From Escherichia phage IME08, in sequence record NC_014260.1: a DNA stretch of 64,000 nt. One strand, 5' to 3'. The translations under genes and the position numbers were made by a program. A model generated the notes under the pieces. That model worked only from the letters and a program-made list of their open reading frames with translations. It was not told where the DNA came from and made no database searches. Shown here piece by piece: positions 4,883 to 39,379 of this stretch. How positions within the stretch are numbered: the stretch's first letter is position 1; every line of letters begins with the position of its first letter.

Positions 4883-4900
4883 TAAAAGGGCCGAAGCCCT
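4883..4900 (-). terminator. GGGC-UUCG-GCCC tetraloop hairpin plus U-run
   Basis: on minus strand reads GGGCttcgGCCCtttt; overlaps stop of the lipoprotein ORF. Confidence 0.5.
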
Positions 4901-5160: not shown

Positions 5161-5166
5161 AATTTC

Positions 5167-5343
5167 TCACTTAGTCAGCAGGTCGTAAAAACCGCCATTA
5201 ACATGTTTAGGAGCCGAGACTAACCGAACAGCCAGCCGATGGCAATCAGGACAAACATCATTATCTCTTTCAGAGATTTTCTTGATTTTTTCGTATTCTT
5301 TTGCACAGTCTTCAGATTGGCATTTGTAATCATAAAGTGGCAT
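5167..5343 (-). CDS. small zinc-ribbon protein (FmdB-like CxxC...CPxC)
   Basis: 58 aa ORF below the track cutoff, hand-translated: MPLYDYKCQSEDCAKEYE...CPDCHRL; AAGGA Shine-Dalgarno 5 nt upstream of ATG. Confidence 0.6.
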   Translation of the reverse strand: MPLYDYKCQSEDCAKEYEKIKKISERDNDVCPDCHRLAVRLVSAPKHVNGGFYDLLTK

Positions 5344-5344
5344 A

Positions 5345-5782: not shown

Positions 5783-5993
5783 TATAAGTCTCCTTCCAGA
5801 AGTCGGTGCCTTCAGCAGTGATTTCACGGAACACTGCATAGATAGGATTTTTATCGCCTTGGTTTTCGTATACATAAACCGACGATAAATGAGAAAACGT
5901 ATCAGAATGTTCCTTTTGAACCACGATTAAATCAGGGTTGAACAGAACATCTTCAAATTCTTCACGAGTCGAGTTCATAGTAACTTTAGCCAT
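5775..5993 (-). CDS. hypothetical protein
   Basis: 72 aa ORF with promoter-like element upstream. Confidence 0.5.
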   Translation of the reverse strand: MAKVTMNSTREEFEDVLFNPDLIVVQKEHSDTFSHLSSVYVYENQGDKNPIYAVFREITAEGTDFWKETYNA

Positions 5994-6015
5994 TTTATTT
6001 TCCTCTCATTTGTTG

Positions 6016-6053
6016 ATAGGGTAATAATATCACTACCCTACCATATTGTATAC
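6016..6053 (-). promoter_or_regulatory. sigma70-type early promoter (variant -35 GTATAC, -10 TATTAT) with conserved CTATCAAC block
   Basis: plus strand shows gttgatagg...ataata...gtatac 20-60 nt above the start of ORF 5775..5993. Confidence 0.45.
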
Positions 6054-6065
6054 TGTTTTTAAACT

Positions 6066-6632
6066 TTATGCAAAATGAATATCAGCATACTCAACGATAT
6101 AGCTCTCAGGGACAACCTTAAAGGTTCCAAGGAACACGATGTTATAGAGCTTAACGCCTTCTTCAACCCACTGGTCGGTGATGTAACCGGACATACTAGT
6201 GGTTTCATAAGTACCGAAAATTTCGTCATAGTATTCAAACGGCTTAGGGGAAACGAAAAAGACACCTTTACCCAATTCCCATTTAAAATCGACACCCACA
6301 TGAGACTGGTCAATAGTTTCAACGTCTTGAGCTACTACGCCACGGATATCATTGCTTTCACATACATACCCATCATGGGATTCAACTTCTTCAACTACAG
6401 GAGCGATGTACCCAGTGAATTCAGTTGATTCCAAGAATTTAGCACGCACATAAGCGAATTGGGTTTCAGTTTGACCATTTTTAGGAATGATGCGCACTTT
6501 TACTTCAGAATTTTCTTCACTGACACCTTCTTTAAGTTGGATGCTAACAACTTCAACTAAATGGCCTGCAGCTTTTGAACGAGACTTTTTGGATACACGA
6601 ACAATACCGCCGATATCGGAAATAGTAATCAT
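6066..6632 (-). CDS. hypothetical protein, paralog A
   Basis: 188 aa; C-terminal 32 aa (GYITDQWVEEGVKLYNIVFLGTFKVVPESYIV) closely matches the C-terminus of the adjacent 183-aa ORF. Confidence 0.6.
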   Translation of the reverse strand: MITISDIGGIVRVSKKSRSKAAGHLVEVVSIQLKEGVSEENSEVKVRIIPKNGQTETQFAYVRAKFLESTEFTGYIAPVVEEVESHDGYVCESNDIRGVVAQDVETIDQSHVGVDFKWELGKGVFFVSPKPFEYYDEIFGTYETTSMSGYITDQWVEEGVKLYNIVFLGTFKVVPESYIVEYADIHFA

Positions 6633-6674
6633 AATTTTTCTCTCTTGGTTAAAGGTTTATTCTCCATGAGAGCC

Positions 6675-6703
6675 ATTATAACATGGCTCTCGATAAAGTA
6701 AAC
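6675..6703 (-). promoter_or_regulatory. sigma70-type early promoter: -35 GTTTAC, 17-nt spacer, -10 TATAAT, embedded in a 9-bp inverted repeat
   Basis: minus strand reads GTTTACtttatcgagagccatgtTATAATggctctc; GAGAGCCAT / ATGGCTCTC are perfect inverted repeats (6668-6691). Confidence 0.6.
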
Positions 6704-7255
6704 TTAATTATAAATTTTAACCACCATAGAACGAGGTACTACACTAAAACTACCACAGTGAACAACGTTAAGAAGTTCAACACCATCTTCAACCCACTGG
6801 TCTGTTACCCAACCACATATAGGATTATCAAAAGGACGACGGATAGACACAGCAGCACACAGCAGGTCAGTAGGGTCTTGTTCGACTTCAACTTCTTGGA
6901 ACAGGATGAACTCTGCTTCATAAACCAAGATTTTCTCTATTTTGTTATTATCTAATCGACGGCCGTGGATGACGTAAGATTTGGCAAACCAGTCACTTTT
7001 GGTAAATTCTTCAACAATAAATTCGCCTTCGCCAAAAACCTCAGTCAGAGTTTTATGGCCGGAAATCAAGGCATTAGTTTTAATTTCAGGTTCAACCAGT
7101 TTGTAGGTTTTGCCGATTTTGATAGTCTGAGTAGTCATAGTAGGTTCCTTAATTTCCAGTGGTTTAACAGGGCATACATAAGTGCTTAAAACATCAAAAT
7201 CAATCAGTTTAGCTGCCGGATTCGGGGTATATTTAGGGTTATAATTAAATTTCAT
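6704..7255 (-). CDS. hypothetical protein, paralog B
   Basis: 183 aa; C-terminus GWVTDQWVEDGVELLNVVHCGSFSVVPRSMVV similar to paralog A. Confidence 0.6.
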   Translation of the reverse strand: MKFNYNPKYTPNPAAKLIDFDVLSTYVCPVKPLEIKEPTMTTQTIKIGKTYKLVEPEIKTNALISGHKTLTEVFGEGEFIVEEFTKSDWFAKSYVIHGRRLDNNKIEKILVYEAEFILFQEVEVEQDPTDLLCAAVSIRRPFDNPICGWVTDQWVEDGVELLNVVHCGSFSVVPRSMVVKIYN

Positions 7256-7761
7256 ATTGTTCTCAATTCAATAAAATCTACGAGTTCGGCATGAGATTTG
7301 CGGAACATTACTTGGCGACCGCCGATGACAACCTCATCTTCTGGTATTTCGTAAACAGCAAGATAGAATCCTTTAGAAGATAATTCAGCACGCTCTTCAC
7401 GAGTGAACCAGCGCATCATATCATACTCGCTGGCAAAAGCAAAATGGTAGAGGTTAACAAACCAACTAGGGATATAGTTATCTACATCTTTATAATCTTC
7501 ATGTTCGAATTTGGTTTTAATTACCGTATTAGAATTTCTAACCAACAACTTGTCTTGACTTGGTAGTGGAATGTTTGCATTATTGGTGTGGTGGTGTCTA
7601 AAATTAGGTCTGTCGAAACCCACTTCTAATAACCAACCTTCACTCCATTCGTCAAATGAGCCTCTATACGGGGTTAATTGGCGACATTGTTGACGAGTGA
7701 TTGCGATAACATCGCTGTTGTCTAAGATACTGAACGATGACTCCACTCGATAAATTTTCAT
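7252..7761 (-). CDS. hypothetical protein
   Basis: 169 aa ORF with its own early promoter upstream. Confidence 0.55.
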   Translation of the reverse strand: MKIYRVESSFSILDNSDVIAITRQQCRQLTPYRGSFDEWSEGWLLEVGFDRPNFRHHHTNNANIPLPSQDKLLVRNSNTVIKTKFEHEDYKDVDNYIPSWFVNLYHFAFASEYDMMRWFTREERAELSSKGFYLAVYEIPEDEVVIGGRQVMFRKSHAELVDFIELRTI

Positions 7762-14705: not shown

Positions 14706-15227
14706 TTAATAACCTCGGTCTTGACGAGCAAAGTTCTCGGCATTTTTCAGATAATACAACTTAAAGATTTCTTCAGCAGTCAGTCCAAGGCCTTGGAACA
14801 TATTCAGAACGAAATGGAGAATATCAATCATTTCAAATTTAATTTCGAGCTGGTCTTCAGGAGAGAGTTCGTCAATACGACGGTTACGGAATTCACCATG
14901 TTGAGCTTTCCAAGGCTTCCACACACTAGATGCGGCTTTCTCGCCATTGCTCATGCCACCAAGAGAAGTCAACAGTTCACGGAATTCGTCATCAATATAA
15001 TCTTTCTGGTTGCGAAGCCAATCGACAACTTGACCTGCAGTAGCCAGTTCATCGGGGTTAGAGTTAAATTCAGATTTTTCAGTAGCCAAACGGACCTGTA
15101 ATGATTTCTGCATATCAAGCATAACCTGCAGAGGGTCTTTATCTTCATGAATCAGAGCATTAAAATAAGCTTCCTCAGCTTTATCAACACCAGAAATCAA
15201 ACCACTACATTCGTTAAAAAATGCCAT
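14706..15227 (-). CDS. 56: dCTP pyrophosphatase (MazG-like dCTPase)
   Basis: 173 aa; position after soc; all-alpha MazG-like sequence with the EExxE signature pattern; size matches T4 gp56. Confidence 0.85.
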   Translation of the reverse strand: MAFFNECSGLISGVDKAEEAYFNALIHEDKDPLQVMLDMQKSLQVRLATEKSEFNSNPDELATAGQVVDWLRNQKDYIDDEFRELLTSLGGMSNGEKAASSVWKPWKAQHGEFRNRRIDELSPEDQLEIKFEMIDILHFVLNMFQGLGLTAEEIFKLYYLKNAENFARQDRGY

Positions 15228-15231
15228 TATA

Positions 15232-15888
15232 TTATTTCCTATTAAAGTTTTCTATCATTCGTCGATAACAAATATCAGGATATCCATTATCAACAGCTAT
15301 TTTATTAAATTTGGTGCGTTTAGGTTTATTATTGTAAACCCATAATTCATAAAGCATATCGTAACTATTCCATATTTCTCCGCGCCTAGGATTTGGCAAA
15401 CCATATCGAGGGGAATCTTTACCACTAAATCTTCCTTTTCTAGCTTTACTCATATTGGCCTTAGCTTCATCAGATATAATTTTATCTTTATGAGCCAGGC
15501 GCATTTTGGCTTTAGTTTCTTCAGGAGTTTTCATCCCTCTAATCCAGGAAGGTTTACCAAACATCGGGTTATTTTTTCCTGAAAATGCTTTAGCGTTATT
15601 TTCTCTTAACGTGGCTATAGTTCTACTAGTTAATTTAACTCCTTTATTATATCTCATTAAATTAACAGCATAATGTAGACCTTTTACTTCGGGATATATT
15701 TTTGTTAAAAGCCTATGAGCTACAAAGTGTTCTCTTGGCAATAAAGCAACTAAATTGTTTTTATCATCAGAACCATTCATACATCTAGGTATAACATGGT
15801 GTTCTTCCGTATAATATGATAAAGACCGCTTAGAACCTCTTAATTTTCCTTTAGATATTAATTCCTGGTATATTTTTTCGTAATTCAT
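15232..15888 (-). CDS. HNH homing endonuclease with NUMOD-like repeats
   Basis: 218 aa; HNH motif EEHHVIPRCMNGSDDKNNLVALLPREHFVAHR; repeated NPMFGK/KDSPRYG modules; AT-rich ORF inserted between gene 56 and gene 61. Confidence 0.8.
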   Translation of the reverse strand: MNYEKIYQELISKGKLRGSKRSLSYYTEEHHVIPRCMNGSDDKNNLVALLPREHFVAHRLLTKIYPEVKGLHYAVNLMRYNKGVKLTSRTIATLRENNAKAFSGKNNPMFGKPSWIRGMKTPEETKAKMRLAHKDKIISDEAKANMSKARKGRFSGKDSPRYGLPNPRRGEIWNSYDMLYELWVYNNKPKRTKFNKIAVDNGYPDICYRRMIENFNRK

Positions 15889-20984: not shown

Positions 20985-21304
20985 CTCTTAGATTTAATTT
21001 TATCCAGTTCTTCTTGTATTTGCATTGTAACACATTTTTCTACATGAAGCGCTAGCTCTTCTTTTCGGTCTTCGGAAGGTGTTCCGAAATCAACCGACAC
21101 TTTTCCATCTTTCTCAATAACAATATTCATCACATAAACGATGTGAGCAGTGCCATCGGGTAAAGTAAGCATAATTTCCTGCTTAACAGAACCCATTGAC
21201 TTACGGATTATATCTAATGATTTCTCATAATAACGAGGGTCACTAGGACCCTCTTCGGTATCTTTAACAAAATTATCTAAATCAGATAAATCAGTCATGG
21301 TCAC
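20969..21304 (-). CDS. 40: gene 40-like head assembly protein
   Basis: 111 aa between uvsX and 41; positional assignment. Confidence 0.55.
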   Translation of the reverse strand: MTMTDLSDLDNFVKDTEEGPSDPRYYEKSLDIIRKSMGSVKQEIMLTLPDGTAHIVYVMNIVIEKDGKVSVDFGTPSEDRKEELALHVEKCVTMQIQEELDKIKSKRWWKW

Positions 21305-22472
21305 TCACAAAATTCATATTTTCTAAATCGTTTTCGATGTCAGCAGCGCTTTGGGTATTTCCACCTAATTTAACAGCAACGTTCTTAGAGACACGAGAGT
21401 TAATAAGGTCGTTCACTGCATCGTCAACTTCTTTAATAGAATTAATTGCACCGAGCTTATACTTATTCTCGATTGCTTCACGGAACGGGGCATGTTTAAA
21501 CAGCGGTCCCCAGAACTCAACACAATCGGTAGCTTTAGCACGCCATGCTTTTTCTTCTTGAACCATTTCGCCTGTGGTTTCGTCAAGGAATGCACGATTA
21601 TACCAACCAGCTTTAGGTTTCACGACAAAGCCGATATCAGTAGCCATTTCAAGCAATCCACTGAATGGGTCGATACCGCCTTCAAAGTTAACGGTGATAG
21701 GGAACGTTGATTTCTCTTTAACCGTACGAGATTTCTCAGCCTTCAGTGTAAAGTCATAACCTGTGAGCTCGGTACCATCTTTAACCTGACGTTTAGAGAT
21801 AAAGAACACGGTAGAAGCAGAGTACAGAATACCAGTACCACCACCCATAATCTCTTTAGGGTACATTCCACCAATTTCCATAGCCGTGTGGTTAATTGCT
21901 ACACAAGGGATGTCCTTGATGGTCAGATAAGGTGTTACGATACGGAACAGAGATTTCAGTGACTTAGCACGAGTCATATCACCTACAACTTTCTCGTTCA
22001 AAGCATCTTCAGTTTCTTTCTTAGAAGCGGTGTTACCAATGGAGTCGATAAAGATGATAACCTTTTCGCCACGAGTAATTTCTTCTAACTGGTTGGTCAT
22101 ATCAACCTTAAGCTGTTCGACTGATTGGATTGGTGTATGAACCACACGTTCCAGGTCAACACCCATCGAACGGAAATAAGATTCTGAAGCACCAAACTCA
22201 GAGTCATAGAACAAACAAATTGCGTCTGGATATTTCTTCATATATGCCGCAACCATGGTAAGTCCAAACAATGTTTTAAAGTGTTTAGATGGAGCAGCAA
22301 AGATTGTCAAACCTGATTGTAAGCCTGCATTCAACGCACCACCTAATGCAATATTCAACATAGGGATACGAGTAGGAACTTCGTCACGACCATTAAACAA
22401 TTTAGATTTGGTCAGGTCGGCAGTCATTTTAGAAGTAGAAGCTTTAATCAAACGGGATTTTAAATCGGACAT
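21291..22472 (-). CDS. uvsX: UvsX RecA-like recombinase
   Basis: 393 aa; first 15 aa MSDLKSRLIKASTSK identical to recalled T4 UvsX, homology throughout. Confidence 0.95.
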   Translation of the reverse strand: MSDLKSRLIKASTSKMTADLTKSKLFNGRDEVPTRIPMLNIALGGALNAGLQSGLTIFAAPSKHFKTLFGLTMVAAYMKKYPDAICLFYDSEFGASESYFRSMGVDLERVVHTPIQSVEQLKVDMTNQLEEITRGEKVIIFIDSIGNTASKKETEDALNEKVVGDMTRAKSLKSLFRIVTPYLTIKDIPCVAINHTAMEIGGMYPKEIMGGGTGILYSASTVFFISKRQVKDGTELTGYDFTLKAEKSRTVKEKSTFPITVNFEGGIDPFSGLLEMATDIGFVVKPKAGWYNRAFLDETTGEMVQEEKAWRAKATDCVEFWGPLFKHAPFREAIENKYKLGAINSIKEVDDAVNDLINSRVSKNVAVKLGGNTQSAADIENDLENMNFVSDHD

Positions 22473-22549
22473 TATATTTTTCCATAGGCACCATTATATT
22501 TTACTCACGTTTTAAGATAGGGTAATTATATCACTTCACATTTACAGCG

Positions 22550-22681
22550 TTATTTTATTCCTCGGTTGATAGCCTTATCGACTATCTTCCGGACTTCTCG
22601 TTTCTCGAGCCAGCATAATAATAACAAGGCTCCGAAAGAGAATAATAACAAAATTATAAAAAGCAATAAAGGACCTAGCAT
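22550..22681 (-). CDS. small single-pass membrane peptide
   Basis: 43 aa hand-translated (MLGPLLLFIILLLFSFGALLLLCWLEKRE...); GAGGA SD 6 nt upstream; ATG overlaps stop of the 297-aa ORF. Confidence 0.45.
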   Translation of the reverse strand: MLGPLLLFIILLLFSFGALLLLCWLEKREVRKIVDKAINRGIK

Positions 22682-23568
22682 ACTACGTCCTCATAACTTG
22701 GCATTTCGTGCTCAGAATGGATATGGGCACCGAAATAAATGAATTCAGCTAGACCAGGATGGAATACTAAACCAGGATTCTCATGATAAATGATATGAGG
22801 TCTTGATTTCAGAATCTGGTAATATTCAACCTTACTCGGTTTGAATTTAATAATCTCTACATCAGGACGATAGTCTTCGCGCTTAAATGAATCATTCGGG
22901 TCGGTGATATAAAGACGAGCACCTTCAGCTGCAGCTTGGTCTACAACTCTTTCGAATTGATAGCATTTATCTGAGATACGGAACGGATGGAAAATACCAT
23001 CAATTTTAATAGGCGCTAGACCTTCAGAGTAACGCTCAATTACTGCAGGATTAATTACCTTTTGGTCTACAAAAATCTTATCAGAGGATGCACCTCGTGA
23101 CACCAGGACGTCTTTCTGGCATTGATTCAGGACTGTAGTATAAATCGAACGTTCAACTGAAGACACGTCGATATCAATGAACTCATCAATATAATAACGA
23201 GGAACTTCAGGGTCCATTGTAATGTTAAAGTTGAATTGTACAGTCTGAGCACCATCATAACCTGTGATATCGGTTACTAATCCTGAGCAGTCATAGTATT
23301 CGATTAACGAATCAACGACGAACTCATTTTCAGACCAAAAATGTTTACGAGTTTCATAAGCATTTTCTTTATACCAAAGCGGCACAAAATTCAGTTCAGG
23401 AAATAATTCAATGCATTCTTTGATATCGCTCGAATTTCTAGGATAAGCCAGATAATCACCTGGGCGAGCACGGTTTAAATGGAGTTGAAAATTACCGTCC
23501 TTAAGGACGGCATATTCACCTGTTTCGTAACTACGCATACTGAAAATAGGAACGATAAACAGACTCAT
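22675..23568 (-). CDS. unknown protein occupying the beta-glucosyltransferase slot; candidate DNA-modifying transferase
   Basis: 297 aa between uvsX and gene 42 where T4 has beta-gt; no resemblance to recalled T4 beta-gt; function inferred from synteny only. Confidence 0.6.
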   Translation of the reverse strand: MSLFIVPIFSMRSYETGEYAVLKDGNFQLHLNRARPGDYLAYPRNSSDIKECIELFPELNFVPLWYKENAYETRKHFWSENEFVVDSLIEYYDCSGLVTDITGYDGAQTVQFNFNITMDPEVPRYYIDEFIDIDVSSVERSIYTTVLNQCQKDVLVSRGASSDKIFVDQKVINPAVIERYSEGLAPIKIDGIFHPFRISDKCYQFERVVDQAAAEGARLYITDPNDSFKREDYRPDVEIIKFKPSKVEYYQILKSRPHIIYHENPGLVFHPGLAEFIYFGAHIHSEHEMPSYEDVVC

Positions 23569-24263
23569 TTCAGGAATCCTCGAACGTAGTCAAAATCGCG
23601 TTCAAATACGTGTGCACTAACCATAGTATGGGAATATGTACCCAGACCAACACCACACTGTTCGGCAATAAAGGCCATCAGTTTACCTTGCAGATAGAAA
23701 TCCAGCTGCATAACGATAGCACAGTTCTGTGAACGCATATGAGTGTGTGCATACAGACGTCCATCACGAATATAATATGTTACCGAATCGGTGCATGGAT
23801 ATTCTAGGGACTCGTCAGAATCAAGGAGTGCTTGGTCTTGTTCTTGGAGAATTTGGAATACTACACGTCGTGAGTTTTCTTTTTCTTTAAGCTCTTTAAG
23901 TAAAGCTGGAAGTTGTGCGACAATGCGAGGGCCATAAAAGGTATTGAAATTCGCAGGCAATACGTCACTTTTCGGCTTATCAATGAACTTAGCAACATTA
24001 GGGTATTCCTTAAATGCTTCGGCGGCATCAGTACCACCGGAAATCATAAACTTCCAGAAAGATTCGGCATAATCATAGTTGATACGATTAATACGAGGGT
24101 CTGTGAATTTATAGGTGCTTGCATCCAGTACTTCTACCGAAGCAGAACCAATTTCATAACAACGGCCGATACGAGAATCAACTGCAAACTGTGGAGCTTC
24201 CAGGATTTCTTCGTTCATTTGCTTAAACGCGTTTTCAAAACTAACAGCGGTAATGTGTTTCAT
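23565..24263 (-). CDS. 42: dCMP hydroxymethylase-like (thymidylate synthase fold)
   Basis: 232 aa; catalytic-Cys region PCTDSVTYYIRDGRLYAHTHMRSQNCAIVMQLDFY parallels T4 gp42 MCTNTVQYLIRDKK..NMRSNDVVFGF. Confidence 0.75.
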   Translation of the reverse strand: MKHITAVSFENAFKQMNEEILEAPQFAVDSRIGRCYEIGSASVEVLDASTYKFTDPRINRINYDYAESFWKFMISGGTDAAEAFKEYPNVAKFIDKPKSDVLPANFNTFYGPRIVAQLPALLKELKEKENSRRVVFQILQEQDQALLDSDESLEYPCTDSVTYYIRDGRLYAHTHMRSQNCAIVMQLDFYLQGKLMAFIAEQCGVGLGTYSHTMVSAHVFERDFDYVRGFLK

Positions 24264-24796
24264 TTATTCACCTTATTTTCAATATATTCATTCAGACGTT
24301 TTAATTCTACCATATCGACGTTAAGCAAGTTATTATGGCCGTCGTGATTTAAGATTTTAAACACGTTTTCAAAACATGTTTCATATTGCCTGATAGTTAG
24401 GTTGAACTCATCTTTGGTTAATTTAATAAGGTCGTCTTCAAAGTCTTTATCCAGTGGATTACGGGTTAAAATAACCTCAATAATATTGAATTCAGATTTA
24501 AACCCTTTCCAATCTTCCAGTTCTACATAAGGGTCCATTTCACCACGAAGGAATCCAGAGTAAACAATATTACTAGGATATCCACGGTCTAAGATGTAGA
24601 CAAAATTAGGGTCTAAAAACTTATACAACGTCTCGACTAAAGCCTTGTCATTATCGGTCCCTAATGAAATGCATTTGCCATTAATCTTTTTAGGGAAATC
24701 AATAAGACGATATTTCTTATCAGATAAAAGTGATTCAATTAAAGTAGACTTCCCGGAATTATCCGGGCCGTCGATAACAATTATTTTTGGTTTCAC
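24260..24796 (-). CDS. P-loop kinase (dNMP/thymidylate-kinase-like or polynucleotide-kinase-like)
   Basis: 178 aa; Walker A IVIDGPDNSGKST at N-terminus. Confidence 0.7.
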   Translation of the reverse strand: MKPKIIVIDGPDNSGKSTLIESLLSDKKYRLIDFPKKINGKCISLGTDNDKALVETLYKFLDPNFVYILDRGYPSNIVYSGFLRGEMDPYVELEDWKGFKSEFNIIEVILTRNPLDKDFEDDLIKLTKDEFNLTIRQYETCFENVFKILNHDGHNNLLNVDMVELKRLNEYIENKVNK

Positions 24797-25191
24797 GGAT
24801 GATATGCCTTATAGGTTTCAAGAGTTCCTTCACGAACCATTTCTTTAAAGTGGTCAGGACGGATTGCTCGGTCATCGATGATAAAAGTATAACTCGGCTT
24901 ATGTGTAAGCAGATTATGATATTTCAATCCAATCTTTTCAAGGTTCTTAACCAATGCAGGAACTACTTCAACCAAGATTCGACCAGGGCCGCATGAAGTC
25001 ATACCACGAGCAGTGAACAATGTAATCTCGTACCCTTCATCATAAAGCTTATTAATCATAGACACCATTTCGGTGTCCGGTTTAAAGTTTTCGTAATCAC
25101 GGTCATGGTTCCAAATCGTGATTGTGTTATCGATGTCAAAACATAAATGAGGCTTATTTTCTACTCGATGTGACATTAAATTTTCTTCCAT
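24793..25191 (-). CDS. HAD-superfamily phosphatase
   Basis: 132 aa; motif I CFDIDNTIT (DxDxT) near N-terminus. Confidence 0.7.
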   Translation of the reverse strand: MEENLMSHRVENKPHLCFDIDNTITIWNHDRDYENFKPDTEMVSMINKLYDEGYEITLFTARGMTSCGPGRILVEVVPALVKNLEKIGLKYHNLLTHKPSYTFIIDDRAIRPDHFKEMVREGTLETYKAYHP

Positions 25192-26849
25192 TGTTTGTGG
25201 AGTTCAGTAGAACCTGTAGGTTTATATTTTACACCAGTTTCTTGGTCAAGCAAAACCCACTTATCAGGACAACGAGTGATAATTTGAGCCGTGATAGGGT
25301 CGCGAACTTCATCAACGAATTCACCTGTGATAAGCTTACGCTTACGAGGATGCCGCTTCAGCAGCACACTCAGTTGATATAAACCATTGTAATAAGCACC
25401 CAGAGCTTTCAGAGGGTTATTTTTAAAGTAACCTGCCAATGCCATCCAGATAACAGCAATCCAGAGCTTGTGCTTAAATGTACACATTGGAATATCATCT
25501 AATGGCATAACCTTTTCAATATCAACGAATACACGAGTTCCGTTACGAGTTAAGCCACCCCATAGAGGGTCGGAGTTAAATTTGTCATAACCATCGATAG
25601 AATAAAGCACCTTAGCTTCGTCATAAATCGCAGGGCCTTTAGAACTATTACCAAAATAACCACGTGGGTCGATGATTTTAATATCACCTTCGTCCGACAA
25701 CATAATATTACTGTAGTGCGGGTCACCATGAATAAGTTGGTACGGTTCTTTATGTTCAGACAGAATTTCTAAGGCGTGACGAAGAAGTTTTTCTGGGTCA
25801 CCTACCTTAAAGTCATTGACATGGGTAATGCCCTGTGGAGCAAAGCCTTCAATCAATCCAGCAATAGAAGCATTACGAATAAGGACCTTGTCCAATACTT
25901 CTTTCTTAACATCAGAATACCATTGCTCATCAGATGGATTATCGATAGTCCCACCGAATGAACGCAATGCACTAATGACCTTATAAACCATGAGGACTTT
26001 AGTTTCTTTAGACATAAACCGGTAGGCATCTGCCATAGTACGACCAAAGATACGTTCCATTTTAATGAATTCACCTGGAGCAAAGTCTACAATGCTCGGA
26101 ACGAATTCAGAATCAATAGAATTGTACCAATTGATTTCTTTAGATTGGATTTCTTTACCTAATTCGTTGGTAGGTACTTTAATAGCCAGATTCTCAGTGA
26201 ACTCTAATTTATTAAATTCACGGTTAATTTCAGAATCTTCATGAGCCTTAGCCAGTTTCAGTTTGTCACCGACATCAACTACAAAGTCCAGCTTACGTTC
26301 AGTCAAATGGACCATTGAATCCAGATTGTCAGCAAGGTCTTCGCCGTAATTAGAACCGTTAAAACCTGTCCAATTGGCTACTTGATACAAACCAACTACA
26401 CCGCCACCGGTACCAATTTCACGCAGGTACGGTTCTTCAAATGTAAAACGACAGTCGGTCCCATAGGTATAACAGTAGTCGTTATCCCACTCAACTTTAT
26501 GGCCCTCAGGAATGATGTCACACCAGTTAAACAGGACATTGTGCCCGATGATATCTTCAGCAATGCAATCGATAGCATGAGCTGAGCCATTGGCAACATC
26601 TACGTTACGAATAGTGAATTTAGGCTTATCGCTGGTAATCATGTTAATGGATTTAATATAACCCTTAACGAGGTCATTAAATTTGCTATGAATTACCAAA
26701 ATGATTTCATCTGATTGGTTACTATACAAATCATACAAATGTTTTAGTACTGTATGTTGTTTGTAGTTAACCAATACCTTCGGGATTTCGTTAGTAATTG
26801 GATACAACCGTGAGCCAAGACCCGCGCCTAAAATAACAACCTTTTTCAT
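25176..26849 (-). CDS. bifunctional nucleotidyltransferase / APH-choline-kinase-like kinase
   Basis: N-terminal ILGAGLGSRL sugar-phosphate nucleotidyltransferase signature; C-terminal LIHGDPHYSNIM...IIDPRGY kinase motifs; start set at MKKVVILGAG with GAGGAA SD. Confidence 0.8.
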   Translation of the reverse strand: MKKVVILGAGLGSRLYPITNEIPKVLVNYKQHTVLKHLYDLYSNQSDEIILVIHSKFNDLVKGYIKSINMITSDKPKFTIRNVDVANGSAHAIDCIAEDIIGHNVLFNWCDIIPEGHKVEWDNDYCYTYGTDCRFTFEEPYLREIGTGGGVVGLYQVANWTGFNGSNYGEDLADNLDSMVHLTERKLDFVVDVGDKLKLAKAHEDSEINREFNKLEFTENLAIKVPTNELGKEIQSKEINWYNSIDSEFVPSIVDFAPGEFIKMERIFGRTMADAYRFMSKETKVLMVYKVISALRSFGGTIDNPSDEQWYSDVKKEVLDKVLIRNASIAGLIEGFAPQGITHVNDFKVGDPEKLLRHALEILSEHKEPYQLIHGDPHYSNIMLSDEGDIKIIDPRGYFGNSSKGPAIYDEAKVLYSIDGYDKFNSDPLWGGLTRNGTRVFVDIEKVMPLDDIPMCTFKHKLWIAVIWMALAGYFKNNPLKALGAYYNGLYQLSVLLKRHPRKRKLITGEFVDEVRDPITAQIITRCPDKWVLLDQETGVKYKPTGSTELHKQWKKI

Positions 26850-26909
26850 TATCTGTTCCTCAAGTGAATGTAGGTACATTATACACTATTTTTAATAAAT
26901 TGATATTGC

Positions 26910-27410
26910 TTAAATCTTATCTTTACCGATTTCAATGCACTGTTCTATTGCTGCTGGCACTTTGGTCTTGAGCTTATTGATTTGTTTCTTATAATCACGG
27001 GCCTTATCGAAGCTCTCGGTTTCGAGCATTTCGTAATAACGAGCCTCGTGGATGGAAATCTGTAGATTGATATGGTTTACGCACATCGCATACAGTTTCT
27101 GCTTTTTGTACAAATCATCTTGGCGCTTCATTTCTGCCTGGTGTTTGGCTAGTACCGCTTCACGCTTAGACTCTTGTTCACGTTGGAATTCAATTTCTCG
27201 TTGAGCATATTTTGCACAGTTATTACCGCATTGATTATTAGCTCGGGTATACACAAGTCCAGAACCTGCACGGAATTTCATTTCGCCATCGAATTGTTTC
27301 TGTTCAGCTGCGATACGAGCTTTACCGACTTCATCAGCCGAAACTGCATCACCATATTGGACCGCGCAACCTGATAGGAGCATACTCATTGCGATAATTA
27401 ACTTTTTCAT
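26910..27410 (-). CDS. putative lipoprotein
   Basis: 166 aa; signal peptide with lipobox LSGC; coiled-coil-like charged body. Confidence 0.6.
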   Translation of the reverse strand: MKKLIIAMSMLLSGCAVQYGDAVSADEVGKARIAAEQKQFDGEMKFRAGSGLVYTRANNQCGNNCAKYAQREIEFQREQESKREAVLAKHQAEMKRQDDLYKKQKLYAMCVNHINLQISIHEARYYEMLETESFDKARDYKKQINKLKTKVPAAIEQCIEIGKDKI

Positions 27411-27419
27411 TGGATTCCC

Positions 27420-27656
27420 TTACTGTTTAACAATGATGATTTGTGCATTTGATTTACGTTCAGCGACGATAGCCCAGATTAAAGCCACTACCCAACCAAT
27501 CATCGTCCAACCTAACAGGAGATTAAGGAAGAAAATTCCTACATTACTACGAGTGCCTCGCAGAAGAGCCAAAATCCATGGTAAAAAGTAACCGATGAAC
27601 ATAATAGCCAGAGAACCAAATCCTAAAACACCAGCACTAACGATTAAAGCTTCCAT
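27420..27656 (-). CDS. imm: immunity to superinfection membrane protein
   Basis: internal start MEALIVSAGVLGFGSLAIMFIGYFLPWILALLRG matches recalled T4 Imm; two TM segments. Confidence 0.8.
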   Translation of the reverse strand: MEALIVSAGVLGFGSLAIMFIGYFLPWILALLRGTRSNVGIFFLNLLLGWTMIGWVVALIWAIVAERKSNAQIIIVKQ

Positions 27657-27674
27657 TATAATTTCCTCTAAGTA

Positions 27675-27717
27675 GTTGATAGGAAGGATACTACCACGTT
27701 CCATGTGGTATGTAAAC
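27675..27717 (-). promoter_or_regulatory. sigma70-type early promoter (GTTTAC, 18 nt, TAGTAT)
   Basis: gttgatagg...gtaaac between gene 43 stop and imm start. Confidence 0.5.
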
Positions 27718-27719
27718 AC

Positions 27720-30491
27720 TTAAAAGTCGAACATGTCAAATAATGTTGCTTTTTTCTCGTAGTCGATTTTAGCAGACTCGGTAAAACCAGTCAGAGGCTT
27801 GATAAAGGTCTTTTGGAACAGTACGTTGTAGTCCATCCAACGGAGGACTTGGTCACGAATCTGAACCGGAAGTTCAATACCTGACGGCCATGCCATACAG
27901 GCTTCACCAAACGGGTTGCCTTCTTTAAGTGGCAGTACGTATACCTTTTCACCATCAACGATACGAGGCATAGTCAAATCACCAGCAGAAGCACGCATGT
28001 AAGCTAAGCAACCTTTGATGTGGTACGGGCATTTAGAACCAGGGAATCCACCTTCATTATATTTCTCGATGTTGTTAGCACTGGATACTGCTGCAATGCT
28101 TACATAGTCCAGTTCGTTAAATTCCTTATTAAACTGTTTGAAATATTCTTGCAAAGATGCCTCGCCTTCCTGAAGCATACGACGGATACATTCTTTCAGA
28201 GCTTTCTGAACCGCTTTAGGTGTACTTGATTTCTGAGTTTCGAGACCCATGATTTTCAAGTGTGGTTCGGCATAACGAGTACCTTCCATGTCCCAAACGT
28301 TCAGTGCATAACGTTTCTTGCCTGTCCAGAATCCACCAAGACCTTTAGAACCAAGAGGAGGACCTGCGATAGCTTCTCGGTCCATGAACATCAAGTGCTG
28401 TTTGTTGTTCATGTACTCACACATCTCACGGAAGCCTGCATCAATAGCCGGTTCCATACGTTCACGTGCAAATTTATCTAAGAAGTCGACCCAGTGGTTA
28501 GTGTCACGGAATTTATCTTCGCCTACTTTATTGATGATTGCATCTGCCTTAACATAAATGGAGTCAGTATCACCATAGAGCACGAACTTCTGATTTTCAG
28601 TCTTACACACGCTATTCAGATATTCGTTAACCTTACGTTCAATCCATTGGAGGGCCATTTGACCAAACAGTGTGATTGCAGTTGCGTTCCTGAGGTCGTA
28701 GTAACGGAACCATACGTTACCAAGTGCACCATAAAGGGAGTTGATAAGCAACTTACGGTTAATCTGAGCAGTCATACCTGCAACTTCGGTACGTTCAGCT
28801 CTGAACAACATTTCTCTTAAAGAAGGTGCTGACAGTGTTTTAATCTTGGCTTTGATTTCGTCAGAGAAGTCAAAACGATAATCGATATCCAGTGGACTAT
28901 CAACTGACAGATTAGGATTTTCTAATGCTTCTTTAATTAACTCGCCATTACGTTGAGCTGCAAGCATATAACCTTTATGTTCTTTACGCTGTAAGAACAC
29001 CTTCGTGATTTCTGTAGGAATCACACCATCACGGTCTTTATAGTACATCATGCCGTTAGGAGAGCAACTGTAGACGTCGCTAGGACGCGGAGCTGTTCCG
29101 GCAATATATTCATGTATCGGTGCGTTAGCGAATGTGCCTGCGATGGTCTCTGGGCTTATATTCACTTGTCGAATGATACTCGGGTACAGAGATGTAAGGT
29201 CGAAACTCATTACATATTTGTAAGCGTTAGGAATCGGTTCCTTAACGAAAGCACCAGGATAAGGTTGGACCACGTGTGAACGAGCCTGTGGAATGACCCT
29301 GCCTTGTTCTTTAAGGCTATTAAAGATAATAGCATCCCAAGTCTTAATTGGACTGAACACCGACTGAATCTGCATCTTAGCATAATAACCCATGTCCAAA
29401 CTCAGAAGAATGAACTGGCGTTTCATATCAATCTGCACTACACGATATACGTCGATAATGTTATAGGAAATATATCGTTGGTGGTTCGTCTCACGCAACT
29501 TGGAGATTGGGCCATCATATTTCAACTTACCTACTTTCAATTCATATTCAGAAACATAATCCAGAGAATAAGAAGGCTGGTTGGTAAAGCTGAATTTTTT
29601 ATACAGGTCGATATAATCCAGAACAGAGATACCGAACAATGTAATAATTTCACGAGCACCGTACATGTTCTCGATAACTTTAACACGAGTCTTACGATGT
29701 GGGCTTAATCGCTTAGCAGTGTTCTCACCAAACAGATTTTTCAGACGGTTATAAACGTATGGTACGTCAAACGACTCAACGTTCCACCCAGTCAAAATCA
29801 CAGGAGTTTTCTGTTGCCAGAAATTCAAATACTCAAGCATCATTTCTTCTTCGGAATTAAACGGAAGATAAACGATTTTGTCAATGATTTCTTGTGGAAC
29901 TTCGTCACCACCTTCGTCTTGGAGTTTCTCAGCGATTTTAATCGACCACTCTTTGACTCTACCGTAAGGTGAAACTAAAAGGTCGAATACATAGAATTTA
30001 TCGTCAATCGAGTCGTAGTGGGTAATAGCATCGATAGGGTGTTTAGCCTGAGCTGGTTCAGGGAATCCATCAGGAGATGTTACCTCGATGTCGAAGTTAG
30101 CAATACGAATCTTAGAAGAATCATATTTGATTTCTTTACGATAGGTATCGGACAAATAGGCTAATTTGTAGTCGTCCATACCCAGGGCTTCGAGACCCAT
30201 ATCGTCCATACGTTTCATCCATTGGGATGCATCACGCATAGAGTCGAATTCTTTCTTAACACAACCCTTACCATAGATATCAATATATTTTACGGCTTGC
30301 TCTGGATTGGCATGCATAAACATTGTAGGCTTGTAAGGAACTTCACGACTACGTTCTTTACCATTTTTATCGATGTAACGTTCGAGAATATTATCACCGA
30401 TTTGTTCGACTGTCAAATAGAATTCTTGCATTTCATTTCCTTTATAGACGAGTGATTGTCTTTTGTTTGTTGATGAATCATTATACTCCAA
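27720..30491 (-). CDS. 43: DNA polymerase (family B) with 3'-5' exonuclease
   Basis: 923 aa; YGDTDS polymerase motif, FDIE exonuclease motif. Confidence 0.95.
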   Translation of the reverse strand: MEYNDSSTNKRQSLVYKGNEMQEFYLTVEQIGDNILERYIDKNGKERSREVPYKPTMFMHANPEQAVKYIDIYGKGCVKKEFDSMRDASQWMKRMDDMGLEALGMDDYKLAYLSDTYRKEIKYDSSKIRIANFDIEVTSPDGFPEPAQAKHPIDAITHYDSIDDKFYVFDLLVSPYGRVKEWSIKIAEKLQDEGGDEVPQEIIDKIVYLPFNSEEEMMLEYLNFWQQKTPVILTGWNVESFDVPYVYNRLKNLFGENTAKRLSPHRKTRVKVIENMYGAREIITLFGISVLDYIDLYKKFSFTNQPSYSLDYVSEYELKVGKLKYDGPISKLRETNHQRYISYNIIDVYRVVQIDMKRQFILLSLDMGYYAKMQIQSVFSPIKTWDAIIFNSLKEQGRVIPQARSHVVQPYPGAFVKEPIPNAYKYVMSFDLTSLYPSIIRQVNISPETIAGTFANAPIHEYIAGTAPRPSDVYSCSPNGMMYYKDRDGVIPTEITKVFLQRKEHKGYMLAAQRNGELIKEALENPNLSVDSPLDIDYRFDFSDEIKAKIKTLSAPSLREMLFRAERTEVAGMTAQINRKLLINSLYGALGNVWFRYYDLRNATAITLFGQMALQWIERKVNEYLNSVCKTENQKFVLYGDTDSIYVKADAIINKVGEDKFRDTNHWVDFLDKFARERMEPAIDAGFREMCEYMNNKQHLMFMDREAIAGPPLGSKGLGGFWTGKKRYALNVWDMEGTRYAEPHLKIMGLETQKSSTPKAVQKALKECIRRMLQEGEASLQEYFKQFNKEFNELDYVSIAAVSSANNIEKYNEGGFPGSKCPYHIKGCLAYMRASAGDLTMPRIVDGEKVYVLPLKEGNPFGEACMAWPSGIELPVQIRDQVLRWMDYNVLFQKTFIKPLTGFTESAKIDYEKKATLFDMFDF

Positions 30492-35977: not shown

Positions 35978-36215
35978 CCTTGATGCATGATTCAGCCATA
36001 TGAATTAATGTTTCTGGAGTATCATCTACCATTACATTAAAGCTAAATTCCACAGCCCAATCAGTGAAAACATAAACCTTTACGACATCTTCGCTTTCAC
36101 CGTCAGTACAGCCTTCGAACCAGAATTTAATGATTGAAGGATTGCCATCGTCGTCAATAACCATACAATCATGTTTAAAGCATAATCCTGATTTTTTGAA
36201 TTCATCTAAAGTCAT
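35952..36215 (-). CDS. hypothetical protein
   Basis: 87 aa ORF. Confidence 0.45.
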   Translation of the reverse strand: MTLDEFKKSGLCFKHDCMVIDDDGNPSIIKFWFEGCTDGESEDVVKVYVFTDWAVEFSFNVMVDDTPETLIHMAESCIKDAYNDENV

Positions 36216-37234
36216 CGTGTAACCTCATTATAAAGTTGTGCAGCCATAGTCTTAAGGGCTTTAACATCGTCTTCAGTGTGGCCATCAGGAAGGGCGTCGA
36301 TATAATCATACATCATATCCAAGAGGGACTTAACTTCATCTTCCTCTTCAGAATCATCGATATCAACACTGTTATCTACCTTAGACACGATACGTAAAGA
36401 ATGGACGACCTTTTCAAGCTCTGATTCGAACTTAGTAAGGCCATCATCGATTTTATCGACTATAACACGAACTGCAATATTTGTAAAATCTTTGTAATCG
36501 ATAGTCGCGTTAGGATAATGAATCTTACGGTGCCAACAGGTTTCATTGATGACGAAATCCATTGTATGGGTTTCTGTATCGAAAATCCAGAAGCCGCGAG
36601 GGTCGTTTTCATCACCTGCAGTCAGGGTCCATGGCGTACCAATATACTTAACGTTTGCTGCATCAGAAATAGTGTGGAAGTGGCCTGACCAAACTTGCTT
36701 ATACCTCTTAAGGAAATCAGGTTCTAAACCATGAGATTTCATTCCTTTATAGAAATAGAAACCATTTAATTCCCAGTGACCTATACAGAAATCTGCTGTA
36801 GTATTTTTGATATGGTCCATGATATCAGTAGTGTTTTCTTCACACATCCATGGAATCAAATCAATTTCGGTACCATCAAAGTTAACCGTAGTAGGTTTCT
36901 CAATAACCTTGATATGGTCGTATTTACCCAGAACTTCAGAAGCAGCGTTCGGAGTCAAGGTATTTTTGTAGTGTGCATCATGGTTGCCGACGACAGTATA
37001 CATGGTAATGCCGTTGGTTTTAAGCAAATCTGAAATATGTCTAGCAAATTCCATACACTTATGAGTAATTGCTTTACGAACATCAAAAATATCACCATAC
37101 TGAATCCAGACAGTGATACCATTTGCTTTAGAATAATTGATGGCATCTTTGATGCCTGCCAATTGGATGTTTTGCACCCAAGGGTCGTCGTTCTTCACTC
37201 CAAGGTGCCAGTCACCCGTATTAAGAATTTTCAT
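36212..37234 (-). CDS. 47: recombination endonuclease subunit (Mre11/SbcD-like phosphoesterase)
   Basis: start set at MKILNTGDWHLG (phosphoesterase motif I); GNHD motif present. Confidence 0.9.
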   Translation of the reverse strand: MKILNTGDWHLGVKNDDPWVQNIQLAGIKDAINYSKANGITVWIQYGDIFDVRKAITHKCMEFARHISDLLKTNGITMYTVVGNHDAHYKNTLTPNAASEVLGKYDHIKVIEKPTTVNFDGTEIDLIPWMCEENTTDIMDHIKNTTADFCIGHWELNGFYFYKGMKSHGLEPDFLKRYKQVWSGHFHTISDAANVKYIGTPWTLTAGDENDPRGFWIFDTETHTMDFVINETCWHRKIHYPNATIDYKDFTNIAVRVIVDKIDDGLTKFESELEKVVHSLRIVSKVDNSVDIDDSEEEDEVKSLLDMMYDYIDALPDGHTEDDVKALKTMAAQLYNEVTR

Positions 37235-37838
37235 TACGTATTCGTTCCCACATTTTGGAGGCTGCTTTAGAAGCAGAGCCAGGAAGTTTACCTTTGACCC
37301 ACCCATCAGGAATATTAGATGGGTTAATCAGTTTATGTTCTATTCCGTTATTATACCACTTCCTGCCCTTATTATGACTAGATGCTTTATAATTAGGTGA
37401 ACGACCTTCTACATATCCTTCGGGGACTGTAGGTGCAAAGGTTTGTTCTAATGTAACAGGATTATAGGAATGAATATACCCTTTAGCATTATGAGAGCCG
37501 TAAAGAGGGTGTTGCTCTTTAGGTAGCGAAAGCCCAAAGAATCCTTTAGGAGCTGCGACAGCCCTATTAAAGAATAGAGGATTTTGGGCTGCATCGGTTC
37601 TTAACTGGTACATTCTTTCAGCTTCTAAAGCCTCTTCTCTTGTAGGGTGTTCACTTACAATACATGAGTCAAATAATTCTGGATGCTCTAAAAGCTCATT
37701 TTTATAGATTTCTTTATATGCTTTAGAAAGGACACTCCCGTGATATCCTTTTAAATGCTTCTCTAAAGTGGTAGACCCTATATAAAACGGTGGAAGCTTA
37801 GTCCCGGAATATATTGTCAGGTATGTGATGTATTTCAT
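37221..37838 (-). CDS. GIY-YIG homing endonuclease (Seg-like)
   Basis: 205 aa; N-terminal YLTIYSG...FYIGST GIY-YIG motif; C-terminal NUMOD-like GRKWYNNG. Confidence 0.7.
   Translation of the reverse strand: MKYITYLTIYSGTKLPPFYIGSTTLEKHLKGYHGSVLSKAYKEIYKNELLEHPELFDSCIVSEHPTREEALEAERMYQLRTDAAQNPLFFNRAVAAPKGFFGLSLPKEQHPLYGSHNAKGYIHSYNPVTLEQTFAPTVPEGYVEGRSPNYKASSHNKGRKWYNNGIEHKLINPSNIPDGWVKGKLPGSASKAASKMWERIRNENS
37221..37838 (-). mobile_element. seg-like homing endonuclease gene where T4 carries alpha-gt
   Basis: located between gene 47 and gene 55. Confidence 0.55.
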
Positions 37839-38607: not shown

Positions 38608-38838
38608 TTAATCCTTTGGAGTCAATTCAATAGTGAAGTAGAAATTAGCGTTCTCAACATGATAACGATAATCTACGTTATTGTCAGGAGAAGTGAATTC
38701 AATATTCCTGACGTTAAGTGGGTCAATATCAATAGGAAGGCCTTTAACATCCCGTAATATCAATTTAATAAAATAAGGGAGTGCTTCGAAGTCTTCCATT
38801 CCATCTAAAAGTGGAGTGATATTAATCTGATGTTCCAT
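38608..38838 (-). CDS. hypothetical protein
   Basis: internal Met start chosen to limit overlap with gene 55. Confidence 0.4.
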
Positions 38839-39379
38839 ATAAAAAATCCAGTTCACCGACTTTAGGTTCGGCACTCTTATCAGACCCTGGTGCTTTAGTT
38901 AAAGAGGTTTCATACTGAGTCATTTTGTCGTAGATATCTTGGATAAAGGTTTCATCTGCGATACCTACCATGTCGTCATCATTACTGTCATAGACGTTAT
39001 GGACGAAGTAGCTATATTTCTTTGCCATTTCTTTACGTTCTTTTTTGATACGCTGAACGAAGGCATTAAAACAAGCCATAGTGATATATGCATGTGGGTT
39101 GTCGTATTTTGTTTCGTCGAAGTTGTGAAGACCTTTAATCGAAGCTTCGATTCCATCAGCAATCATTTCTTGCTTCCAAGATTGGGTATATCCTGAGAAG
39201 TTGAAACGTTTACTTAGTCCTTCAGCAATGAGCATAATAGCCAAGCCAATAACGTCGTTCTGGCGAACTATTTTATTAGGATCAGTATTTTCTCTGAGCT
39301 CTGTTTTCCATTGGGTAATAGCTTTCAGAAGCTCCTTATTATTTACATAGTTATTTTTAGTCAGTTTAATTTCGGTCAT
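38822..39379 (-). CDS. 55: late-transcription sigma factor
   Basis: 185 aa; same length as T4 gp55; position after gene 47. Confidence 0.85.

Follow-up and report, generated by a model that had tools for sequence, protein, structure and literature searches.

A Gene Block Where Glucosyltransferases Are Missing

Escherichia phage IME08 is a T4-like coliphage of the genus Dhakavirus. The 64,000-nucleotide stretch analyzed here (the window; record NC_014260.1) is 93–97% identical at the nucleotide level to the JS98/IME341/Bp7 group. Homologues of the T4 alpha-gt and beta-gt genes were found neither in the window nor in a complete Dhakavirus genome, which extends what an earlier note on this DNA had observed. 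The a-gt gene was likewise not found between gp47 and gp55, where homologues of a-gt.2 to a-gt.5 sit. This raises the question of what modification the phage DNA carries and what is encoded by the five genes that run in one direction (22675-26849) between uvsX and the lipoprotein, imm, and DNA polymerase genes (Table 1).

The earlier note read this interval as a DNA hypermodification cassette with a pathway for an NDP-pentose donor. Homology backs that reading. All five protein families have full-length homologues in the clusters of phages RB69 and HY126, which occupy the same uvsX-to-polymerase interval. There is a strong probability that the five genes encode the Dhakavirus version of the Afh-type pathway, which hypermodifies DNA with arabinosyl-5-hydroxycytosine. 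The homologies, domain make-up, active-site signature, and GT-B fold were computed in this work, and the chemistry of each step comes from the literature on homologues; we infer that arabinose-5-phosphate is drawn from the host, that a single arabinose is added, and what the TMK-like kinase does.

Arabinosylation was proposed as a pathway in 2018 and worked out in 2025–2026, and Dhakaviruses are named among the genera carrying the syntenic cluster (Lee et al. 2026, NAR, PMC13326640). Because pathway, enzymes, and distribution are already published, the cassette is known rather than a discovery. All the open reading frames listed previously are present at the positions given for them, all on the minus strand, and the domain calls for the cassette proteins hold by Pfam and motifs. 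The lipoprotein, however, had been counted as a cassette member and must be removed from the module, because Gaprivervirus VR7 keeps this lipoprotein next to imm while its uvsX-to-polymerase interval lacks all five genes. RefSeq relatives label the cassette genes "RNA polymerase binding protein," "thymidylate synthase," "thymidylate kinase," "phosphoheptose isomerase," or "hypothetical protein," and as a practical matter these labels can be corrected.

Table 1. Cassette genes, flanking genes, and related features in the IME08 window
Feature	Coordinates	Strand	Description
dCTPase (gp56 homologue)	14709-15227	-	94% identical to RB69 gp56
uvsX	21291-22472		Cassette flank, one side
43-aa ORF	22550-22681	-	
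Predicted DNA (or nucleotide) arabinosyltransferase 1	22675-23568	-	297 aa, GT-B fold
Predicted dCMP 5-hydroxylase (5-hydroxy-dCMP synthase)	23565-24263	-	232 aa, flavin-dependent thymidylate synthase superfamily member
P-loop nucleotide kinase, thymidylate-kinase/YorR-like	24260-24796	-	178 aa; homologue of RB69 gp45, DLP3 gp78
HAD-type phosphatase	24793-25191	-	132 aa; homologue of HY126 AfhF, RB69 gp51
Predicted bifunctional sugar-1-kinase/NDP-sugar pyrophosphorylase	25176-26849	-	Homologue of HY126 AfhE, RB69 gp52:53
Lipoprotein ORF	26910-27410	-	166 aa; lipobox LSGC
imm	27420-27719		Flank on the other side from uvsX
Gene 43 (DNA polymerase)	27720-30491		Flank on the other side, with imm
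gp47	36215-37234		
gp55	38825-39379		

The Sugar Donor and Its Transfer

The largest cassette protein is a fusion. Its open reading frame reaches 26879 (25176-26879, 567 aa), and the start is most likely Met11 at 26849, giving 557 aa, because relatives are annotated in this way and the alignment to HY126 begins there. Residues 11–567 align with residues 1–562 of the 562-aa HY126 protein at 43% identity (E 6.5e-145), and identity to RB69 gp52 and gp53 is 41–45%. Pfam assigns NTP_transferase (PF00483) to residues 13–110 and APH (PF01636) to residues 356–427. The GxGxR signature at the N-terminal end reads GAGLGSR (residue 20), and the C-terminal half carries the HxDxxxxN loop HGDPHYSN at 384 and the metal-binding Asp motif IDPRG at 403. 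The HAD phosphatase is 63% identical to RB69 gp51 and 64% identical to HY126 AfhF, matches the HY126 structure PDB 9iqw (E 5e-55), and has its DxDxT motif as DIDNT at residue 19. Its predicted role is that of an arabinofuranose-1,5-bisphosphate 5-phosphatase, the function of AfhF coming from He et al. 2026 as cited in PMC13326640. The HY126 homologues of the fusion and phosphatase genes were shown to make UDP-arabinose (PMC13326640).

The 297-aa protein is a homologue of RB69 gp46:47 (65–69% identity), the HY126 299-aa protein (67%), and DLP3 gp79. The transferase fold sought in it is there in the predicted model, which is of the GT-B (GT4-like) type at high confidence. Its gene adjoins the hydroxylase gene with overlapping stop and start, in synteny with RB69 gp46:47. 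For the DLP3 homologue, first-transferase activity was not demonstrated in vitro by Lee et al., who also left undecided whether DNA or a mononucleotide receives the first sugar (PMC13326640).

Arabinose has been shown chemically for the RB69, HY126, and DLP3 clusters (PMC13326640), and the pentose guess of the earlier note, with arabinose as its example, agrees with the chemistry of these homologous systems. For RB69 and DLP3, the species with one arabinose has been reported at m/z 376. It is unlikely that the lineage of Dhakavirus, Marfavirus, and Proteus phages keeps the 5-hydroxycytosine base but activates a different sugar phosphate and attaches a glycosyl group other than arabinose. The idea arises because this lineage lacks a phage isomerase and has a divergent AfhE. 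An isomerase is missing from both the window and the whole IME341 genome; the AfhE-like protein, at only 43% identity to HY126, clusters separately with the versions from Klebsiella (about 81%) and Proteus (about 72%) phages; and 5-hydroxycytosine carrying hexoses is known in phage RL38J1 (PMC13326640). However, the phosphatase and transferase, both of which must recognize the sugar, share 64% and 67% identity with their HY126 counterparts. AfhE is also equally divergent in arabinosylating Serratia and Acinetobacter phages: the IME08 protein is about equally far (42–46%) from the Mosigvirus, Serratia LC53, and Acinetobacter versions, and arabinosylated 5-hydroxycytosine has been reported in phages of such hosts, Serratia and Acinetobacter included (PMC13326640). 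Its function therefore appears to be kept across this divergence. The E. coli enzymes KdsD and GutQ make arabinose-5-phosphate for Kdo synthesis, making a phage isomerase dispensable. A lesser version might apply, in which a mono-arabinosyl form depends strictly on the host, its synthesis being fed from the host's pool of Kdo precursors. If true, either this form or another sugar would add a variant not yet described to the family of 5-hydroxycytosine glycosylations.

The Modified Base

With arabinose as the preferred sugar, the identity of the base turns on the 232-aa protein. Pfam places it in the thymidylate synthase family (PF00303, E 5e-13). It shares 78% identity with RB69 gp48 and 79% with the HY126 homologue, and it matches PDB entries 9iqu, 9iqc, and 9ir2 (E 2e-124). 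For the RB69 and HY126 enzymes, dCMP hydroxylation was proven by 18O2 labelling, LC-MS, and crystal structure (PMC13326640). In E. coli ThyA numbering, the alignment gives Cys146, L143E, N177D, and D169N; the catalytic Cys aligns with C146, and the Asp that aligns with N177 is the dCMP-preference residue. C146, R166, and S167 in the alignment validate the E. coli numbering. Lee et al. 2026 proposed D169N as the diagnostic residue of dCMP 5-hydroxylases (PMC13326640). The region around position 169 reads RSQNC in the window and in RB69, RSNDV in T4 gp42, and RSCDV in E. coli. It is thus very probable that 5-hydroxycytosine, rather than hydroxymethylcytosine, accepts the sugar, given the close identity to proven 5-hydroxylases together with D169N, where T4 gp42 keeps Asp.

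These results do not support the hydroxymethylcytosine base of the earlier note. Its description of the protein as gp42-like is true at the superfamily level and not beyond, because identity to T4 gp42 is just 25% over 159 residues, part of the length. There is very little chance that the sugar is attached to hydroxymethylcytosine made by a gp42-type dCMP hydroxymethylase. Membership in the superfamily is compatible with such an enzyme, as are N177D and L143E, which the protein has in common with T4 gp42, and RB69 DNA was first described in 2018 as arabinosyl-hydroxymethylcytosine (PMC6024577). That assignment has since been corrected, and for the 232-aa protein itself Asn at 169 and the low identity to gp42 speak against a gp42-type activity.

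The 178-aa kinase is 37% identical to RB69 gp45 and 36% identical to the HY126 protein. It matches phrog_761 "thymidylate kinase" (E 2e-39), has the Walker A motif GPDNSGKST, and matches YorR (PDB 2axp/3kb2) weakly. The likeliest candidate for its substrate is a 5-hydroxy-dC nucleotide.

It is scarcely credible that the kinase, nucleotidyltransferase, and phosphatase work in a pathway unrelated to DNA, such as phosphocholine or capsule/LPS sugar activation: CTP:phosphocholine cytidylyltransferase (1jyk) is among the closest non-phage structures of the fusion protein's N-terminal domain (E 1.5e-4) and relatives are labelled "capsule biosynthesis protein," "GlmU," or "phosphoheptose isomerase," but these labels are automatic annotations, the genes are placed between the hydroxylase/transferase pair and replication genes and co-occur with that pair over 367 phage records, the sister genus Gaprivervirus lacks these genes and the pair alike, and the HY126 homologues yield UDP-arabinose.

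A Minimal Arabinosylation Pathway

For the arabinosyl-5-hydroxycytosine pathway, the following steps are proposed. The dCTPase, which lies outside the interval delimited in the earlier note, is predicted to belong to the same pathway, removing dCTP and giving the hydroxylase its dCMP. With O2 and flavin, the 232-aa protein would hydroxylate dCMP at C5 to form 5-hydroxy-dCMP. The phage dNMP kinase, possibly also the 178-aa TMK-like kinase, would take this to the 5-hydroxy triphosphate, which the phage polymerase would incorporate instead of dC. In parallel, the kinase half of the fusion protein would add a phosphate to C1 of host arabinose-5-phosphate from KdsD/GutQ. The HAD phosphatase would then take off the 5-phosphate, and the nucleotidyltransferase half would use UTP to form UDP-arabinofuranose. 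Finally, the 297-aa GT-B enzyme would move one arabinose to the 5-OH.

Judged by gene content, the Dhakavirus set is a minimal version, with neither a second transferase nor an arabinose-5-phosphate isomerase encoded by the phage. Neither the RB69-type isomerase (gp55) nor the second transferase (gp3) had a tblastn match in the window or the whole IME341 genome, and gp49 and the U32-like gp50 of RB69 were not found in the window or the whole Dhakavirus genome. The slot between rIIA and gene 39 contains nothing but a 116-aa DUF7367 protein. The pathway would not be identical to that of RB69, because the isomerase, U32-like gp50, and second transferase are missing. Since the genus lacks the isomerase, the host is the presumed source of arabinose-5-phosphate, and since one transferase is present, the expected product is mono-arabinosylated 5-hydroxycytosine. 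The searchable literature yielded no chemical analysis of Dhakavirus DNA.

The cassette explains why Dhakaviruses do without both glucosyltransferases. Mosigvirus DNA has been shown to withstand CRISPR nucleases and many type II restriction enzymes while being attacked by type IV systems such as GmrSD/BrxU. The same is predicted for Dhakavirus DNA, which matters when choosing therapeutic coliphages.

Comparison with Known Systems

The closest counterparts are the Mosigviruses RB69, HY126, and Bas46/47, which have the same five families in the same interval and likewise lack alpha-gt and beta-gt. Their arabinosyl-5-hydroxycytosine pathway is reportedly covered by He et al. 2026 in Nat Chem Biol, with its Afh proteins, and by Mahler et al. 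2025 in Cell Host Microbe. Identity to RB69/HY126 is highest for the hydroxylase (78–79%), followed by the transferase (65–69%), HAD phosphatase (63–64%), AfhE-like protein (41–45%), and TMK-like kinase (36–37%). The kinase gene follows the hydroxylase gene in Dhakavirus but is next to uvsX in Mosigvirus, and the lipoprotein gene and imm adjoin the polymerase gene in Dhakavirus, unlike in Mosigvirus. RB69 has gp55, gp50, gp49, and gp3, whereas the Dhakavirus genome lacks all four. The expected Dhakavirus product is mono-arabinosylated, in contrast to the mono- plus di-arabinosylated Mosigvirus DNA.

Shewanella phage Thanatos, which infects another host and is only distantly related within the Straboviridae, has a single syntenic arabinosyltransferase-1-type gene in its published description, like Dhakavirus. 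Its DNA contains mono-pentosylated (mono-arabinosylated) cytosine, and the phage makes 5-hydroxy-dC with a thymidylate-synthase homologue that bears D169N (PMC13326640). The addition of one sugar is expected in Dhakavirus for the same reason, a single gene of this type. Acinetobacter phage DLP3 shares the core, with gp79 (transferase), gp80 (hydroxylase), gp78 (kinase), gp81 (HAD), and gp82 (fusion enzyme). It forms tri-arabinosylated 5-hydroxycytosine and has extra transferases (gp76 and gp77) and its own isomerase (gp83), neither of which is in the window.

T4 uses the same strategy in the same genomic slot: dCMP is altered ahead of replication by a thymidylate-synthase homologue, and the new hydroxyl then receives a sugar from a GT-B enzyme. 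The dCTPase is common to T4 and IME08, but sequence similarity to T4 a-gt or b-gt is undetectable in the window. Folate-dependent hydroxymethylation by gp42 (D169) contrasts with the flavin/O2 hydroxylation predicted for IME08 (D169N). T4 draws on host UDP-glucose and needs no donor pathway, and both sugar and linkage differ from those predicted for Dhakavirus. Rhizobium phage RL38J1 has an adjoining trio of kinase, transferase, and D169N hydroxylase (RL38J1_214-216), as in IME08, but attaches hexoses (galactose and glucose) and lacks an AfhE/AfhF-type donor pathway. The presence of the kinase in this hexose system suggests that the TMK-like kinase is tied to the base rather than to arabinose.

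A probable copy of a known arabinosylation pathway between uvsX and imm

The cassette between uvsX and imm is real and, judged by homology, is most likely the Dhakavirus copy of a system already known, the arabinosyl-5-hydroxycytosine pathway. The earlier note had described a candidate hypermodification cassette, and all of the open reading frames (ORFs) that it listed were found on the minus strand. The cassette proteins carry the motifs DxDxT, Walker A, GxGxR, and HxDxxxxN, and Pfam recovers thymidylate-synthase homology in the 232-aa protein and an NTP_transferase plus APH-kinase fusion in the 567-aa protein. As the note had said, no homologue of the T4 alpha- or beta-glucosyltransferase (a-gt, b-gt) is encoded in the window; the same is true of the complete genome of the Dhakavirus IME341. 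Between gp47 and gp55, the window has homologues of a-gt.2 to a-gt.5 and no a-gt. With the ORFs, domains, and motifs present and the glucosyltransferases absent, the observation is therefore confirmed.

Features of the cassette, its surroundings, and related loci, with protein identities to RB69 and HY126
Feature	Coordinates	Strand	RB69 counterpart	Identity to RB69	Identity to HY126
116-aa DUF7367 protein	2423-2773	-			
dCTPase	14709-15227		gp56	94%	
218-aa ORF	15232-15888	-			
uvsX (flank on one side)	21291-22472				
43-aa hydrophobic ORF	22550-22681	-			
297-aa protein, predicted GT-B transferase	22675-23568	-	gp46:47	65-69%	67%
232-aa protein, thymidylate-synthase homologue	23565-24263	-	gp48	78%	79%
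178-aa protein, TMK/YorR-like kinase	24260-24796	-	gp45	37%	36%
132-aa protein, HAD phosphatase	24793-25191	-	gp51	63%	64%
567-aa NTP_transferase + APH-kinase fusion	25176-26879	-	gp52:53	41-45%	43%, full length, E 6.5e-145
Start region of the 567-aa ORF	26850-26890	-			
166-aa protein with lipobox	26910-27410	-			
imm (flank on other side)	27420-27719				
DNA polymerase (flank on imm side)	27720-30491				
gp47	36215-37234				
205-aa ORF	37221-37838	-			
gp55	38825-39379				

The clusters of RB69 and HY126 were taken from their sequence records and compared with the window proteins by BLAST. All five cassette proteins have homologues in these arabinosyl-5-hydroxycytosine clusters, and the kinase, phosphatase, and nucleotidyltransferase bear out the proposed NDP-sugar donor pathway. 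RB69 gp46:47 is a single gene, split by a sequencing error. In the PDB, the 232-aa protein matches 9iqu/9iqc/9ir2 (E 2e-124) and the 132-aa protein matches 9iqw (E 5e-55), all deposited in one series with 9iqz, "phage HY126 glycosyltransferase." A PDB sequence search with the 297-aa protein found no relative, and Pfam gave no match for it or for the 132-aa protein; the GT-B fold is recognizable only via predicted structure. In PHROGs, these two proteins are labeled only as "unknown function" or, misleadingly, as "phosphoheptose isomerase."

RefSeq labels for the five genes in Dhakavirus relatives are "RNA polymerase binding protein," "thymidylate synthase," "thymidylate kinase," "phosphoheptose isomerase," and "hypothetical protein." In IME341 (3276-7426 of stretch L001) and other Dhakavirus records, misleading public labels make the transferase an "RNA polymerase binding protein," the hydroxylase a "thymidylate synthase" or "dCMP hydroxymethylase," the HAD phosphatase a "phosphoheptose isomerase" or "capsule biosynthesis protein," and the fusion enzyme a "hypothetical protein" or "GlmU." The first ten codons of the 567-aa ORF are likely untranslated. 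Met11, preceded by GAGGAACAGATA, is the start in relatives and in HY126, and the upstream ATG sits within an extended -10-like TGTATAAT sequence.

At four junctions, adjacent genes share a few bases, an operon-like arrangement. The region is indistinct from its surroundings in GC content (0.32-0.42) and is 93-97% identical in nucleotide sequence to about 50 Dhakavirus phages in GenBank, including IME341, vB_EcoM_005, Bp7, MX01, JS10, and JS98. A promoter and terminator scan gave signal no better than in shuffled sequence, and Rfam had no match at 21000-29000. Lying between uvsX and the transferase gene, the strongly hydrophobic 43-aa ORF has a 7-base overlap at the transferase stop codon; in IME341 it is kept (42 of 43 residues) but lacks annotation.

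Base and sugar

The base had been taken to be hydroxymethylcytosine, made by a gp42-like hydroxymethylase, and neither proposal holds up. An alignment for the active-site signature (the 232-aa protein, E. coli ThyA, T4 gp42, and RB69 gp48) places Cys 146, Glu 143, Asp 177, and Asn 169 in the 232-aa protein by ThyA numbering, while T4 gp42, only 25% identical to it, has Asp at 169. D169N has been put forward as the mark of the hydroxylating branch, and this was confirmed on nine further enzymes (PMC13326640). The 232-aa protein is therefore grouped with the hydroxylases and not with gp42, which argues against hydroxymethylcytosine. RB69 gp48 and DLP3 gp80 convert dCMP to 5-hydroxy-dCMP in a reaction that draws its oxygen from O2 and uses a bound flavin (Lee et al. 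2026, PMC13326640).

The suggestion of a pentose such as arabinose fared better. RB69 and DLP3 DNA contains mono- to tri-arabinosylated 5-hydroxycytosine by MS/MS and NMR, with the arabinose ether-linked directly to C5 (Lee et al. 2026, PMC13326640). The older description of the RB69 modification as "arabinosyl-hmC" is now considered mistaken. The note overstated novelty, as comparative genomics had already placed the cluster in Dhakaviruses and further genera (PMC13326640), and Thomas et al. 2018 (PMC6024577) had pointed out that IME08 has a full-length fusion-protein homologue. No paper reporting direct chemistry on Dhakavirus DNA was found in the literature searched.

A minimal form of the pathway

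In the proposed mechanism, dCMP would be supplied by the dCTPase and hydroxylated at C5 by the 232-aa enzyme; kinases would then take 5-hydroxy-dCMP to the triphosphate for incorporation instead of dC. AfhF, the HAD phosphatase of HY126 and homologue of the 132-aa protein, is a Mg-dependent phosphatase converting arabinofuranose-1,5-bisphosphate to the 1-phosphate, according to He et al. 2026 as relayed by PMC13326640. The fusion enzyme and HAD phosphatase together would convert arabinose-5-phosphate to UDP-arabinofuranose, and the single GT-B enzyme would add one arabinose. The arabinose-5-phosphate would presumably be taken from the host; E. coli KdsD and GutQ make it for Kdo synthesis. A mono-arabinosylated product is suggested by the single transferase and by analogy with Thanatos, where a single syntenic transferase goes with one pentose (PMC13326640).

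The Dhakavirus version is a minimal form of the arabinosyl-5-hydroxycytosine pathway. Searches of the window and of the complete IME341 genome turned up no arabinose-5-phosphate isomerase (RB69 gp55), no second transferase (RB69 gp3), and no U32-like gp50.

In RB69, gp3 lies between rIIA and gene 39; the window has only the DUF7367 protein there. The 218-aa ORF, beside the dCTPase gene, is similar to MobB, a T4 homing endonuclease (42% identity over the first 136 residues), and weakly to SegA. The 205-aa ORF fills about 630 bp without counterpart in IME341. It is flanked by gene 47 and the a-gt.2 homologue, in the slot that holds a-gt and mobB in T4. Its GIY-YIG match is weak and below threshold (E 0.008), and it probably represents an inserted homing endonuclease gene of the seg type.

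Module boundary

The lipoprotein, included in the module by the earlier note, was rejected as a member. In the Gaprivervirus VR7, the interval from uvsX to the polymerase contains only the lipoprotein homologue, 42.1, and imm; the five enzymes are therefore gained or lost as a block while the lipoprotein stays beside imm.

The predicted lipoprotein has a signal peptide, the lipobox LSGC, and a match to phrog_1754 (unknown function). Dhakavirus and Gaprivervirus phages have homologues; those of Gaprivervirus are about 50% identical and likewise adjoin imm, but in the absence of a modification cassette. [quoted passage not shown] That the lipoprotein acts in superinfection exclusion is only a guess, prompted by where it lies and by its export signal. 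The gap between imm and the lipoprotein gene is 9 bases in the window (27411-27419) versus about 140 bp in IME341 (147979-148119; 2979-3119 of stretch L008), where it holds a 36-codon homologue of RB69 gp54, the T4 42-imm intercistronic ORF, which the window lacks.

Relationship to other systems

The TMK/YorR-like kinase adjoins the transferase and hydroxylase even in RL38J1, which uses a hexose, and this points to a nucleotide rather than a sugar as its substrate. In the phage collection, 367 records contain a protein like AfhE, the bifunctional sugar-1-kinase/NDP-sugar pyrophosphorylase of HY126; 276 contain the isomerase, and 212 contain the second transferase. The window AfhE (the 567-aa fusion) groups with those of Klebsiella Marfa-like (~81%) and Proteus (~72%) phages and is 42-46% identical to all other versions, including those of the arabinosylating Serratia LC53 and Acinetobacter phages.
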